Assembly (NCBI GenBank): GCA_041640595.1 | Contig: JBEPZY010000008.1 | Coordinates: 8,484 to 72,483 of the forward strand | DNA: 64,000 nucleotides | Source of the DNA: Gemmatales bacterium | GTDB lineage: Bacteria > Planctomycetota > Planctomycetia > Gemmatales > HRBIN36 | Direction of reading: 5' to 3' | Shown here: positions 3,001 through 31,937 of the stretch, one piece after another | How the letters are laid out: every line of letters starts with the position of its first letter | Numbering within the stretch: position 1 is the first letter of the stretch | Program-made: the position numbers and the translations under genes | The notes under the pieces: model-generated | Databases searched by the model: none | Told to the model about the DNA's origin: nothing | What the model saw: the letters and a program-made list of their open reading frames with translations, nothing else

Positions 3001-6000
3001 CCACCGTGGTTCGATTAGTACCCGCCTTGCTCCCAGAGCGCGTCTTCGAGTAACTCCATGTTTCAATCCCACCGTGGTTCGATTAGTACCGCCTGCGAGC
3101 TTAGAGAGGGAAATCAAACAACTGAGTTTCAATCCCACCGTGGTTCGATTAGTACGTCGGTGTTGGTGATGCTCCCGTCGTCACGGTGAAAGGTTTCAAT
3201 CCCACCGTGGTTCGATTAGTACGTTGCCTGCCTATTGCCTCCGTCAGTTGTGGCAACAGTTTCAATCCCACCGTGGTTCGATTAGTACGATCTGATGCGT
3301 TGCGAAATCAACCAGCAACTCCACGTTTCAATCCCACCGTGGTTCGATTAGTACCGTGGCTCATTGGCATAACAACTCCCTTGTGTTATGTGTTTCAATC
3401 CCACCGTGGTTCGATTAGTACTGCGCTTCTGAAGGTGAAAACAAACATCCTCGGCTTGTTTCAATCCCACCGTGGTTCGATTAGTACAGGAACCGGCGGG
3501 CAAACTCGCGGAACCGCTCCGCAGGTTTCAATCCCACCGTGGTTCGATTAGTACGATTAGGTCAAGAATGACGTTGCGCTTTGCTTTTGAGGTTTCAATC
3601 CCACCGTGGTTCGATTAGTACTCCTCGCATCCGTCATTGCTCTGCTGGCCGAATCCGAGTTTCAATCCCACCGTGGTTCGATTAGTACGCAGACGACGTT
3701 GGCACGGCTCAGATACCACGCGCGCGTTTCAATCCCACCGTGGTTCGATTAGTACTGCCCGCGGCCTGGCGTCCGCGCGCTCATTCCGCCGGTTTCAATC
3801 CCACCGTGGTTCGATTAGTACGAAGGCCCTGGGCAACGCGGAGCGTGGCCACGTCCGGTTTCAATCCCACCGTGGTTCGATTAGTACTGCCCGGCCCCGC
3901 CTTTACGAGGTCGGCGATGCACAGTTTCAATCCCACCGTGGTTCGATTAGTACGTGACCCTGATGGTCATATCGGCATTGCGGTTGCCAAGTTTCAATCC
4001 CACCGTGGTTCGATTAGTACGCTGCTTACAAGGATCGCACGTGCGTTAGCTAACCCGGTTTCAATCCCACCGTGGTTCGATTAGTACTCAGTCGCTGTGC
4101 AACAGCAGCAGGCAGCGTTACTTCCGTTTCAATCCCACCGTGGTTCGATTAGTACTTGCAATTGTGGGCTGCGTACTATCAGCTTGAGCCGGTTTCAATC
4201 CCACCGTGGTTCGATTAGTACCACCGAACAGCACGACCTTCTTATCGGCGGCGAGTTCGTTTCAATCCCACCGTGGTTCGATTAGTACTGCTGGGCAAAG
4301 ACAACGCATTGTCAACGCGGCTTAGTTTCAATCCCACCGTGGTTCGATTAGTACCGCAGACAACCTCGCCAACTCGCACGCTGATGACATGTTTCAATCC
4401 CACCGTGGTTCGATTAGTACTTGGTGGGTAGGCCCGACGATTGCAACTACTGTCCAAGTTTCAATCCCACCGTGGTTCGATTAGTACTATCAACGCTATC
4501 AAGCGCGTTGAGAAACAGACCGGTTTCAATCCCACCGTGGTTCGATTAGTACACGAAGCGTCTCAATGCAGCGCTCACGGAACGTAAGCGTTTCAATCCC
4601 ACCGTGGTTCGATTAGTACCTGGTGTTGGGACTGGCGCTCTGGTCTATTTCAAGTGTTTCAATCCCACCGTGGTTCGATTAGTACAAAACCGGTTCGGTT
4701 CAGTTCGGTTCGGTTCTGTTAGTTTCAATCCCACCGTGGTTCGATTAGTACTGCCTGAGGGCCGAGTATGGAACTCGCATGCGGACTAGTTTCAATCCCA
4801 CCGTGGTTCGATTAGTACGTTCACGTCAACACCTGTAACAAGGCAGTCAAACTTCGTTTCAATCCCACCGTGGTTCGATTAGTACTCAACTTCACGAAGT
4901 TTCTGCTTGACAACGCTGCCGGTTTCAATCCCACCGTGGTTCGATTAGTACGCGTCGTGTGCCGATGCCGACCGCCGATTCTTCCTGAGTTTCAATCCCA
5001 CCGTGGTTCGATTAGTACACGGAGATGGCTATTGGCTGCATCTATTCGATACCGCGGTTTCAATCCCACCGTGGTTCGATTAGTACGCACGAACACGTCT
5101 GTGCGATTCGACCAACACGCTGGTTTCAATCCCACCGTGGTTCGATTAGTACGCTGCTTACAAGGCTCGCACGTGCGTTAGCTAACCCGGTTTCAATCCC
5201 ACCGTGGTTCGATTAGTACAGCGGAAGTGTGGATTGACGTGATAACAGAAGACCGTTTCAATCCCACCGTGGTTCGATTAGTACCGGTAGCGTTCTTGTG
5301 CCCGACCATCTCTCTTGCCTGTTTCAATCCCACCGTGGTTCGATTAGTACCAGAAACTTGCCGACTGCGATTGCCAACTGCGTCGCCGTTTCAATCCCAC
5401 CGTGGTTCGATTAGTACCGAGTCCTGGCTTGGTTTCGCACCTGACGGCGTCCAGTTTCAATCCCACCGTGGTTCGATTAGTACGATAGGCTGGCGGTGAA
5501 CGGGGGCACAAGCCAAGCAGTTTCAATCCCACCGTGGTTCGATTAGTACGCATTTACGCGATACCGCGTGGCGGCAAAGTTATCAGGTTTCAATCCCACC
5601 GTGGTTCGATTAGTACCCTTGATTAGATGAATGGCCCTCGGATAAGCACCCGGTTTCAATCCCACCGTGGTTCGATTAGTACGTGTCTCCGTCGTCCTCC
5701 TGCGCACTTGGTTGCTGGTTTCAATCCCACCGTGGTTCGATTAGTACCGCGGTGGTGTTTGACGTGTGGGACCACGATCTGTCGTGTTTCAATCCCACCG
5801 TGGTTCGATTAGTACGCGGTGCTGGCGATAGACGGTGAGCCGGTGGCTCGCGGTTTCAATCCCACCGTGGTTCGATTAGTACGCAAAGCAGCCCAGCGAT
5901 AATGCCAGACTTTATAGCCGTTTCAATCCCACCGTGGTTCGATTAGTACTTATTCTGAAAGCAGGCACGGCACTGCTGGGACTGAGTTTCAATCCCACCG

Positions 6001-12843: not shown

Positions 12844-13210
12844 GGGGCCATCGTTATTGGGGGTGCGGTGATGGAGTCTGGCAAAACTTTCTGTCGAAGC
12901 GGCGGGTAGGGGGCCAACGTTATTGGGGAGTGGGGCGTACCGGAAATTGCGGCAGCTCCGGGGTTCGCGGGGTTCGGCGAGGGGTTCGCCGGGGAGTGGG
13001 GCGTACCGGAAATTGCGGCAGCTCACCCACGTCGATGCCGTGGGGCCAATGTTATTGGGGACTGGGGGCTTGTTCGACAAGATTGAATCTATTTCTCCGA
13101 TTTGTAGGGGGCCATCGTTATTGGGGAGTGGGGTGGTGGAATGATTCGCGCGTCTATGTACGCCGCAAGTAATCAGCGCCATCGTTATTGGGGGGGTAGG
13201 GTGGTGGAGC
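12844..13210. repeat. Degenerate 66-bp-period repeat array, consensus GGGGCCAWCGTTATTGGGGAGTGGGG, 6 units
   Basis: GTTATT core at 12853, 12919, 13051, 13117 and 13184, plus a half-unit (GGGGAGTGGGG) at 12991. Spacings are 66,66,66,66,67. Confidence 0.85.
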
Positions 13211-29572: not shown

Positions 29573-29761
29573 TCAGGCACTTTTGCCACCCTGCCGCAGC
29601 AGCTCCTCGGCAAAGGCGGCGGCGATTCCGCTCGTCAGCACCAGGTGCTCGTACAGCGAAATCCGGCCGACTCGACCATCGGCCAGAAGGTAACTTTCCT
29701 GGCCCAGCGATTCTTCAAATTCCCGGTGAAAACTCGCTACAAGTTCTTCCAGGTCGCTCAT
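29573..29761 (-). pseudogene. Short fragment resembling a Cas10-family N-terminal region
   Basis: 62 aa containing LADGRVGRISLYEHLVLTSGIAAA, comparable to the Cas10 motif ISLYxHLxxTxAIA (Cmr2 here has PADTRQPDHPLEQHLSISAAIA). Ends 20 bp before cmr1. Confidence 0.5.
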
Positions 29762-30252
29762 GCTTTCCGCCCATTTCGACGAATGCCGTTCGCAGTCAGC
29801 TCTGCGGACTGCAATTCCTTTTTCCAGCGGTTGACGCTGGCCACGATCACAGGCCCGACGCTTCTGGAGCATATCTTCATTCACGGCTCCCTTTCGTTTC
29901 ACCTGGTTACCGTGGATTCGGGCCGAACGTGCTCCTTGATTTCAGGAAGAGTCAGAAAGACCTCCGCACGATGTTTCGCGTCGCCAGTCTGAAGCAACAC
30001 CACCAGCCGCGTATGTCCCTAGCGATTTTCTGGCTCAACGGACTCGCCAAAGGTAACTGATGCGATCCCGGTGATTTACCACGCGGGTGGGCCACAAAGG
30101 ATGTTGTGAACACGGGCGACATCGGTGGCATCCTCGTTTGGTGCATTTTACACGGTTGCTATACTTGTATTCGAGAATCCAAACCGCGGCAATGGTCAAC
30201 ACTCGATTTTGTCTCTGATTGGCACAATGGCGACCGGCCGCGGAAACGGCAG

Positions 30253-30545
30253 CTATGGACGCCACCGGTTGGGAACCTGCCCGGGCTTCTTCCCCATTGG
30301 TATTTATCGCACAGTAACTACGGACGCCGCCGGTTGGGAATCTGCCTCAGCTTCCTCTCGTGGCTCGACGACCTGTTCGCGCCTATGGGATGCCACCGGT
30401 TCGGAATCTACCCCAGCAGTGCCTACGACCAGACTCGCCGGGGTCAACGACGCAAGCACGATATCCCGGTTTGGGAATCTACTCCCAGCAGTGCCTACGA
30501 CCAGACGTGCCAAGGTCAGCAGCGGAAGGAAGATGTCCCGGTTTC
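30253..30545. repeat. Degenerate repeat array, ~30-bp unit CTAYGGACGCCRCCGGTTGGGAAYCTGCC, periods 65/66/71/72
   Basis: GGAAYCT core at 30272, 30337, 30403 and 30474. The first two intervals are distinct 35-mers; later units share cagcagtgcctacgaccagac. Confidence 0.75.
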
Positions 30546-30839
30546 GCGGCTGATGGTGTGTGGCAACTTGTTCCCGTGCCGTGTGCAGATTCCCCAGTGG
30601 CCGTGCAATGACGAAATGGCAACTCGCAATCGGCATGTCCACGTGCTTGGGCAGGTGCACAGAGTGCGGTGTGGAGATAGGCCGGGCGCCGTGTAATGAC
30701 AAAAGCGCGGCTCGCCATCTGCAGGCCAAAGCGTTGGCGCAGGTGTGTCCGCAGCAGTTGGCGGCTAATGCGGGCTATGGTGCGGAGTGCGTTCCCGAGT
30801 TGTGTCGGGAGCGGTGGCGGGTAAGCAGTTGGATACCGC

Positions 30840-31387
30840 TGGCGGTGCGTAGTCGGAATGGTCAAGTGCAATCCCACCGTTGGAGGGCGTGGTCAATGAC
30901 CCATGTTCCGATGTGGCAGCGTCTGGTCGGAAAGGCCAAGTGCAATCACCGCCTGCGGCTCCGGCTTCGGCCAACCAGGCACCCCGCTGGCAGTGTCTCG
31001 TCGGAATGGCCAAGTGCAATCACACCGTTGGAGGCCGTGGTCAATGACCCATGTTCCGAAGTGGCAGTGTCTGGTCGGAAAGGCCAAGTGCAATCACCGC
31101 CTGGGGCTTCGGCTTCGGCCAACCAGGCATCCCGCTGGCAGCGTCTCGTCGGAATGGCCAAGTGCAATCACACCGTTGGAGGGCGTGGTCAATGACCCAT
31201 GTTCCGAGGTGGCAGCGTCTGGTCGGAAAGGGCAAGTGCAATCACCGCCTGCGGCTCCGGCTTCGGCCAACCAGCCACCCCGCTGGCAGTGTCTGATCGG
31301 AATGGCCAAGTGCAATCCCACCGTTGGAGGGCGTGGTCAATGACCCATGTTTCGAGGTGGCAGCGTCTGGACGGAAAGGGCAAGTGC
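30840..31387. repeat. 74-bp-period array: 8 copies of a ~36-bp core with two alternating ~38-bp intervals (148-bp higher-order repeat)
   Basis: caagtgc at 30863, 30937, 31011, 31085, 31159, 31233, 31307 and 31381, all exactly 74 apart. Core TGGCAGYGTCTSGTCGGAAWGGCCAAGTGCAATC. Confidence 0.95.
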
Positions 31388-31500
31388 GAGGCCGCTAGCG
31401 TTTCCCGATGAGGGAGATGCCCAAAGTGTACCGTTCGCGTTGCCAGGCGGAATCGCTGCTAAGTGAGCTGAAGCGAACCACCGGCTCGCAATTGACGGCC

Positions 31501-31659
31501 CGGCGGGAGAAGATGTTGAACAATAAGCAAGGTCTCGTAAATCGTGGATGCATTGTAATCGATCCACCAGCCACCAAGAGTTGAACAATAAACGAGTTCT
31601 CGTGAATCATAAGTTTCGCGGTGTCTCGCCGCGCGGCGGGAGAAGACGTTGAACAATAA
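31501..31659. repeat. Three copies of a GTTGAACAATAA-containing repeat, periods 65 and 68
   Basis: gttgaacaataa at 31515, 31580 and 31648. Copies 1 and 3 share cggcgggagaagaygttgaacaataa. Confidence 0.8.
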
Positions 31660-31937
31660 CCGGCCCTGCGCGTGCTGGCCCACCCCGTTCGCCGCTATTG
31701 GCCGCTAGTTCCCGCCGCACGCAACTATATTTTCGACAGAGCAGCCGCGATTCCACGGCGTCATCAGACGCATGGCGGGTGCCGGACACCTTTTGCGAAA
31801 AATTTTTGCGAACAGAATTGTCCTCTTGAGACGGCCGCGGATTTTTGATAAAAGCAAGTTCAGCGGCCCAATTCAGCATCACGTCCACGTTCTAAAGGAG
31901 ACACAACTATGAGCACGCTCTACTTCGCCGACGGTGT

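Follow-up and report, generated by a model that had tools for sequence, protein, structure and literature searches.

A repeat-spacer array inside a decayed IS5-family transposase, probably a natural scar of off-target CRISPR spacer integration

How does an array with the layout of a CRISPR locus come to lie inside a dead transposase gene? The question is raised by a 64,000-nt stretch of DNA from a Gemmatales bacterium (contig JBEPZY010000008.1, positions 8,484 to 72,483 of the forward strand; hereafter the window), whose initial annotation, made from the letters alone, described a repeat-spacer array within a transposase remnant. That description held up. Tandem Repeats Finder reports a tandem array at 30836-31387, with a period of 148 in 3.7 copies (93% match) and also a period of 74 in 7.2 copies, and in a 74-nt register the interval 30840-31387 resolves into eight 30-nt cores with seven 44-nt inserts between them, alternating as A B A B A B A. 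The period in this array is exactly 74, the cores starting at 30840, 30914, 30988, 31062, 31136, 31210, 31284, and 31358. The number of seven inserts is taken from the assembly; four public runs yielded only short unitigs over the array. Copies of A are mutually identical at 40 to 42 of 44 positions and copies of B at 40 to 43 of 44, while A and B agree with each other at 18 to 21 of 44, counting the first six nucleotides, AATCAC, that they have in common. The tandem array within the decayed transposase is a real feature, and we consider it likely to be a natural off-target CRISPR spacer-integration scar ("neo-CRISPR") that was enlarged by recombination. Its parts, in window coordinates, are as follows.

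29595..31750, + strand: decayed IS5-family (PF01609) element, paralogue of C3:417716-419414 (blastn, tblastn, domains of homologues)
30560..30869, + strand: left transposase remnant, ...LAANAGYGAECVPELCRERWRVSSWIPLAVRSRNGQV, ending at the integration site (open reading frame list; alignment to intact homologues)
30833..30869, + strand: first pseudo-repeat, the putative 37-nt target, made up of ATACCGC and the 30-nt core R1; single in the empty sites C1:321492 and C3:419038
30870..30913, + strand: insert A, copy 1, beginning AATCCC
30914..30943, + strand: core repeat R2, of the derived type TGGCAGCGTCTGG...
30944..30987, + strand: insert B, copy 1
30988..31017, + strand: core repeat R3
31018..31061, + strand: insert A, copy 2, beginning AATCAC
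31062..31091, + strand: core repeat R4
31092..31135, + strand: insert B, copy 2
31136..31165, + strand: core repeat R5
31166..31209, + strand: insert A, copy 3
31210..31239, + strand: core repeat R6
31240..31283, + strand: insert B, copy 3
31284..31313, + strand: core repeat R7
31314..31357, + strand: insert A, copy 4, beginning AATCCC
31358..31387, + strand: last core repeat, R8; the downstream sequence of the ancestor, GAGGCC..., comes next
31388..31530, + strand: right transposase remnant, RGR*RFPMREMPKVYRSRCQAESLLSELKRTTGSQLTARREKMLNN (translation; alignment to intact homologues)

Several decayed copies of an IS5-family insertion sequence (IS) are present in the genome. The array lies in one of them, whose 29595-30879 part is 94-97.5% identical to the C3 copy by blastn. 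No intact copy of this IS was found in the genome, where tblastn detected remnants only. Intact homologues are 284-292 aa long and carry PF01609. In the window, ANAGY replaces ADAGY, a stop follows RGR, and the N-terminal part is absent, leaving no catalytically intact open reading frame; the transposase fragments taken alone gave no Pfam match. The flanks of the array encode pieces of a DDE transposase, and the right remnant, RGR*RFPMREMPKVYRSRCQAESLLSELKRTTGSQLT, has the motif Y-x2-R-x3-E-x6-K.

Deletion of 30870-31387 (518 bp) fuses ...WIPLAVRSRNGQV to RGR*RFPMREMPKVYRSRCQAES in one frame, reproducing the earlier observation that removal of 7 x 74 bp rejoins the transposase. At the paralogous positions C1:321492 and C3:419038, the 30-nt core (TGGCGGTGCATAGTGGGGATGGTCAGGTGC) is single and is followed by GAGGCC, which makes them empty sites. 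Metagenome loci L021 and L022 are likewise empty, with the core present once and GAGGCC next. Intact homologues, when aligned, have no residues between AVH(R/S) and (A/G)DG, and the core corresponds to codons LAVHSGDGQV. The empty paralogues and the intact homologues without an insert show the core to be transposase DNA and the 44-nt intervals to be additions, as had been proposed; collapsing the array and aligning it revealed neither A nor B already in place in the paralogues or the intact homologues. Among the eight repeats, R1 lies nearest the ancestral sequence, which it matches at 26 of 30 positions.

The same geometry recurs across the genome. Sequence outside three arrays was scanned for direct repeats matching at 22/24 positions or better and enclosing an interval unlike the neighboring intervals. 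Periods of 65, 66, 67, and 68 gave 14, 37, 27, and 13 hits, and periods of 72, 73, 74, 75, and 76 gave 10, 25, 23, 27, and 4, while periods 40-64 gave 0-2 hits each. After filters, 91 units of period 65-68 and 74 units of period 72-76 were retained (about 165 in total), the 74 counting four rows of the studied array and at least one leucine-rich-repeat gene. The two classes differ in the length of the repeat, with a mode of 30 and a median of 29 for periods 65-68 and a mode of 36-37 and a median of 36 for periods 72-76 (Mann-Whitney p = 7e-13). Repeat sequences are nearly all distinct from unit to unit, a few recurring in paralogous IS copies, and the units lie in long open frames less often than random segments do (72/165 versus 1734/2000). 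Examples are given here.

C1:11763, C1:90476, C2:27005, C3:146547: units of period 65-68
C1:210852, C3:52526, C7:236291: units of period 72-76

Some of the inserts have recognizable sources. Matches elsewhere in the genome were found for 21/165; among these are several paralogous IS copies but also some genuine donors. Extended by 4 nt to 37 nt, the insert at C3:643266 is identical to C1:732923-732959, leaving a duplication of 30 nt; the insert at C3:484583 shows this pattern too, with C5:166631 as its source. At C2:174386, the insert matches a native spacer of the 30-nt-repeat array described below (C8:12372-12402, window 3889-3919) at 30/31 aligned positions, shifted by about 2 nt.

Control scans of 400 kb each found 21 units (65-68) and 18 units (72-76) in the studied genome, 0 and 1 (74 = 38 + 36) in the same-genus genome G002, and 0 and 2 doubtful ones in G006, from another genus of the same family. 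G002 has arrays with the 37-nt repeat, and the 30-nt repeat was not found there; neither array type was found in G006. On these counts, from a small sample of two relatives, the scars are a trait of the studied genome, with a geometry that follows that of its resident CRISPR systems.

Two kinds of direct repeats that the scan also brought up were rejected as scars. Those of period 87-94 belong to a family resembling repetitive extragenic palindromes (REP-like), and hits of period 126, with some of period 72, fall in WD40 and leucine-rich-repeat genes. About 175 places in the genome have the REP-like palindrome, CAAGAGCGGCGGGCGTCAGCCCGCCGTGG, its copies paired at a distance of 87-94 nt (C1:764199-764985 and C2:38530-39837 are examples).

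Which integrase fits the array? The genome has two CRISPR systems. The first has a 30-nt repeat, present 317 times on C8 and 27 times on C10; its spacers are 35-40 nt long (mode 36) and its period is 65-70. Its module in the window is type I-B, with a Cas1b above the curated cut-off and type I-B Cas7, Cas5, Cas3, Cas4, and Cas2. The second, at C1:359749-377898, comprises 247 repeats of 37 nt (CTCGCAACTTAGACCCCAACCAATAGGGGATTGAAAC); its spacers are 33-40 nt long (81 of 36 nt, 99 of 37 nt, and 38 of 38 nt) and its modal period is 74. It is accompanied by the following genes.

C1:356211-356405: Cas2, upstream of the 37-nt array, above the Pfam cut-off
C1:356905-358557: reverse transcriptase (RT), related to group II intron RTs
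C1:358590-359618: Cas1, beside the 37-nt array

Cas1 and Cas2 are each present twice in the genome, along with Cas4 and the RT. The C1:356211-377898 locus also has a 101-aa open reading frame between Cas2 and the RT; effector genes are absent beside the 37-nt array, which may use the Cmr genes in the window.

The initial annotation tied the array to the adjacent 30-nt-repeat CRISPR. That link was not sustained: none of the 341 spacers of this system is 44 nt long, none exceeds 40 nt, and a period of 74 fits the C1 system instead. With a 37-nt duplication, the insert becomes 74 - 37 = 37 nt, the modal spacer length on C1, whereas the adjacent array would require 44 nt. The duplicated length also agrees. 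The stretch common to units with A and units with B is 36 nt long, or 37 nt in copies whose A has a final C (L023, L024, and the C1:329 copy), compared with 37 nt for the C1 repeat, and the 7 nt that precede the first core (ATACCGC) recur after B as ACCCCGC, a match of 5/7. A fifth and strongly diverged IS copy, at C3:610539, has a core, a different AT-rich 44-nt insert (C), and another core, again with a period of 74, apparently the product of a separate event at the same position. Here CCGC and GAG are shared with the edges of the target, which permits a 37 + 37 reading. Because of these shared-unit lengths and edge matches, A, B, and C can all be read as a 37-nt target duplication plus a 37-nt spacer.

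The responsible integrase is thus most likely the Cas2-RT-Cas1 module beside the 37-nt array on C1 and not the type I-B module in the window. Such a Cas1-Cas2 integrase would have made staggered cuts about 37 bp apart in the decayed IS5-family transposase, at codons LAVHSGDGQV; a 37-nt spacer would have been joined in, and gap repair would have doubled the 37-bp target. A second spacer may then have entered the upstream pseudo-repeat with a shift of 6 nt, the duplicated unit being one base (C) + core + AATCAC = 37 nt. The shift would explain the identical AATCAC start of A and B, and also the 36-37 nt common to A-units and B-units. Unequal crossing-over between pseudo-repeats would have multiplied and deleted units of 74 nt and 148 nt, giving seven inserts here and from one to five or more in other copies and strains, and recombination between IS copies would have distributed the array. 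The array itself is probably without function.

Other copies and strains display the states expected from whole-unit change. The IS copy at C1:329453 reads core-B-core-A-core. Ten of the 15 fetched metagenome loci with a near-intact relative carry the core; eight of these bear arrays, and the other two are the empty L021 and L022. Locus L023 has A only, L029 B only, L024 and L026 B A, and L015 A B A; the contig of L016 ends after B. Metagenome proteins that read through arrays have B; B B; A B A B A; A B A...; and B A B A.... The period of 74 was also found in L015, L023, L026, and L029, and it becomes 68 where B has a 6-nt deletion. Only insert types A and B were found in the window, the C1:329 copy, the eight array-bearing loci among the 15, and the six array-bearing metagenome proteins among 12; later change therefore consisted of gain and loss of whole units with no new spacers. 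The initial annotation had proposed target duplication followed by amplification of a dimer, and the coexistence of one-insert states (L023 and L029) with multi-insert states fits such whole-unit amplification and loss.

The history of spread may be legible in the repeats and flanks. The first repeat is also of the derived form in the C1:329 copy and in some metagenome copies, and the flanks in the window are mosaic, the left one being nearest the empty copy C3:418 (122/140) and the right one nearest the array-bearing copy C1:329 (104/120). The derived first repeats in other copies and the mosaic flanks point to a divergent IS copy as the place of origin of the array, which may have reached other copies through recombination that crossed over within the first repeat.

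Several further units were noticed in the same IS family. Window intervals 30253-30347, 30389-30546, and 31498-31660, in the same remnant, contain additional units, among them a period-65 unit with a C3 paralogue and a 72-nt tandem repeat; a two-insert unit with spacings of 65 and 68 lies at ...GTTGAACAATAA, also in this remnant. The same site in the C-terminal part of the transposase bears different inserts at C1:321769 and at C2:407699 / C3:561426 and looks like another hot spot. Runs X3 and X4, from other hot-spring samples, have insertions in the same IS that are absent here, at window 30602-30637 and 30386-30412; these consist of a 36-nt back-step with 38 new letters (sum 74) and a 27-nt back-step with 39 (sum 66).

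A number of results weigh against integration on the 37-nt ruler. The clear duplication comprises 30 nt of ancestral sequence, and the extra 7 nt match at 5/7 after B and at 2/7 after A; because only 30 nt are clearly duplicated, a 37-nt duplication depends in part on the offset model. The 6-nt offset is a step that we infer, for which no precedent is known to us. As to the order of the two events, the evidence pulls both ways: A is the last spacer in 6/6 mixed arrays, which favors A first, and the duplication edge is better for B, which favors B first. By eye, the pseudo-repeat agrees with the 37-nt repeat at 9/37 positions in one orientation and 7-8/37 in the other. Repeats R2 to R8 share a cluster of changes in their 5' half (TGGCAGYGTCTGG versus TGGCGGTGCATAG) that simple duplication does not predict; to account for them, either the array must have originated in a divergent IS copy and then recombined, or the units must have been homogenized. 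Searches of the organism's own genome, of phages and plasmids (best E values of 2-9), and of IMG/VR (exact 20-22-mers) turned up no donor for A, B, or C. Lastly, insert C matches the downstream flank in register at 19-23/44 positions, a score reached by 0-15 of 1000 shuffles, which hints at plain 74-nt tandem duplication for the C3:610539 copy.

Searches for relatives of the array DNA returned little. The derived repeat, written as a degenerate 21-nt pattern, had no match in GTDB representative genomes, and a search of 40 relatives for the IS and array DNA gave only a 41-nt match at chance level.

Could the neighboring type I-B module (Cas1b, Cas2, Cas4) have made the array after all, with a 30-bp duplication, 44-nt inserts, and capture of some repeat DNA in A? 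The clearly ancestral duplicated part is exactly as long as the neighboring repeat, 30 nt, and the array lies about 18 kb from the 30-nt-repeat CRISPR and about 15.5 kb from its cas1. The initial annotation further noted that CAATCCCACCGT, at 30869-30880 and again at 31313-31324, is identical to positions 5-16 of that repeat, and the identity is exact; an alignment of A1 with the repeat reaches p of about 0.004-0.008 against shuffles. Sharing of at least 12 nt with either native repeat was found in 0/657 random 100-nt genome segments, and sharing of at least 11 nt in 1/657. The conclusion drawn from this match, that the insert began in CRISPR-repeat sequence, was not supported. The same 12-mer also turns up at C1:862088 and C2:441544, which are unrelated sites; in the window, A2 and A3 (two of four A copies) read AATCAC, as do the A copy of C1:329 and every B, so that these match at 11/12; and the other 165 units have no excess of repeat-like words. 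In the offset model, moreover, the match would extend over a three-part junction, composed of the core's final base, six bases derived from the other spacer, and five bases at the start of A. For these reasons the 12-nt match is very probably due to chance. The type I-B explanation also needs a length of 44 nt for all three inserts, against a native maximum of 40 nt, and the 91 units that do have duplications of about 30 nt have periods of 65-68, not 74. We therefore regard a type I-B origin as unlikely.

A second alternative dispenses with CRISPR enzymes: a 74-nt piece of the transposase would have been duplicated by slippage, and the copies would have diverged as in an ordinary minisatellite. 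Whole-unit gain and loss, the restriction to two insert types without further new spacers, and the in-register match of insert C to its downstream flank are all in keeping with this. If it were so, A and B should descend from local sequence. An ungapped split test of A and B against the flanks gave p values of 0.09-0.83, and local alignment gave 0.22-0.73 for B and mostly 0.05-0.82 for A. One A copy reached 0.016-0.03 against the window's own collapsed sequence, by way of a short TGGTCAA match. No likeness of A or B to the 60 nt on each side or to the core rose above shuffles. A and B do not align to the flanks, and the initial annotation had likewise seen only weak similarity upstream; the idea that they are diverged flank copies was rejected, the result being negative for B and, apart from the TGGTCAA match of one copy, for A. 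By eye, A and B also seemed to resemble the upstream flank where it meets the core, but these likenesses failed against shuffles and were dropped. The likeness of A and B to the flanks is at chance level, and the cores keep 19-26/30 positions, which counts against this alternative. Nor does slippage explain two sharp period classes equal to the two native CRISPR periods, duplicated lengths that track the two repeat lengths, inserts from distant loci, or one that nearly equals a native spacer, and G002 has 1 unit per 400 kb against 39 in the studied genome. A plain minisatellite is accordingly improbable.

The weakest alternative, a working mini-CRISPR or functional RNA locus that is transcribed, processed, and kept by selection, could point to the repeat-spacer layout with eight repeats, to a position about 1.3 kb upstream of the cmr operon, and to contigs of an RNA-labeled metagenome run that cover the region, but it is very improbable given just two spacer types without polar addition of many spacers beside a leader, a pseudo-repeat unlike either native repeat apart from the 12-nt junction match, a copy number ranging from 0 to 7 across copies and strains with an empty paralogous site, and an RNA-labeled run that looks the same as the DNA run of a like sample, so that DNA carry-over is possible.

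Off-target spacer integration followed by recombination thus remains the preferred explanation. A bolder version of it, which we put forward tentatively and at slightly less than even chances, is that the locus is a snapshot of the birth of a CRISPR array, in which a pseudo-repeat was reused as an acceptor and gained a second spacer in a register shifted by 6 nt, the transposase served as a hot spot that was also struck independently in a divergent IS copy, the RT-associated Cas1-Cas2 was the agent, and two promiscuous integrases left some 70-90 scars each. To our knowledge, off-target integration by an RT-associated Cas1-Cas2 has not been reported. A full-text literature search found neither natural genomes with many scars nor off-target activity of RT-linked Cas1, which is weak evidence of absence since subscription journals were mostly uncovered.

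The genome offers a natural data set in which two integrases in one cell, each with its own duplication and spacer length, are associated with about 165 scars, some of which allow their empty sites, donors, and hot spots to be reconstructed. In one instance, a scar became an eight-repeat array that a CRISPR finder would report. Questions that can be tested on this material are how sites away from the leader are chosen, what misintegration costs the genome, and how orphan or new arrays start. The case also calls for caution, as some "orphan CRISPR arrays" and "fixed-step minisatellites" may be integration scars.

Four observations on the 30-nt-repeat system and its relatives are recorded here. 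Window 12928-13025, between cas2 and the first repeat in the leader region of the 30-nt array, has a period-66 unit in which a sequence of about 32 nt, GGGGAGTGGGGCGTACCGGAAATTGCGGCAGCTC, is present twice. The same leader has the motif GGGGCCAACGTTATTGGGG five times. The short contig C20 bears, at 1208-1448, a small array with a variant 30-nt repeat, GTTTCAATACCACACTGGTTCAATTAAAAG. At C3:328836-328932 there is an orphan pair of degenerate 30-nt repeats whose spacer matches C15:699-732.

How does the array compare with known systems? Nivala, Shipman and Church reportedly described non-canonical Cas1-Cas2 integration that forms "neo-CRISPR" loci in E. coli (Nat Microbiol, 2018). A preprint describes off-target integration in E. 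coli, with only circumstantial evidence in two other species, and states that the E. coli system needs its genes for spacer acquisition to be artificially up-regulated (bioRxiv 10.1101/148544). The loci studied here share with neo-CRISPR a spacer-length insert and a repeat-length duplication outside arrays and, on the preferred explanation, a new unit that can take a further spacer and a resident integrase as the agent. They differ in being natural and not induced, in a planctomycete from hot-spring metagenomes; in the presence of two integrases, each with its own ruler (30 + 36 and 37 + 37), and about 165 scars; in the fit of the studied array to an RT-associated Cas1 module; and in the amplification of this array by what would be unequal crossing-over to seven inserts of two kinds, spread among IS copies.

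With the organism's own canonical arrays (the type I-B 30-nt arrays on C8 and C10 and the 37-nt array on C1), the studied array has the repeat-spacer layout in common, and with the C1 array also the period of 74 and the shared 36-37 nt, which equal its repeat plus its modal spacer. Unlike them, it has a repeat made of transposase DNA and two spacer types in place of hundreds; no leader was recognized, and the array gave no sign of processability by Cas6. Bacterial minisatellites, or variable-number tandem repeats, resemble it in the change of copy number by whole units between paralogues and strains, the amplification probably being due to unequal recombination, or to slippage, between repeats. 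They differ from it in that the unit studied here has more than local sequence as its source, over half of each unit being inserted DNA unrelated to the flanks. Set beside these systems, the array is a natural instance of a known mechanism, unusual in its size, its reconstructable history, and its genome-wide context.

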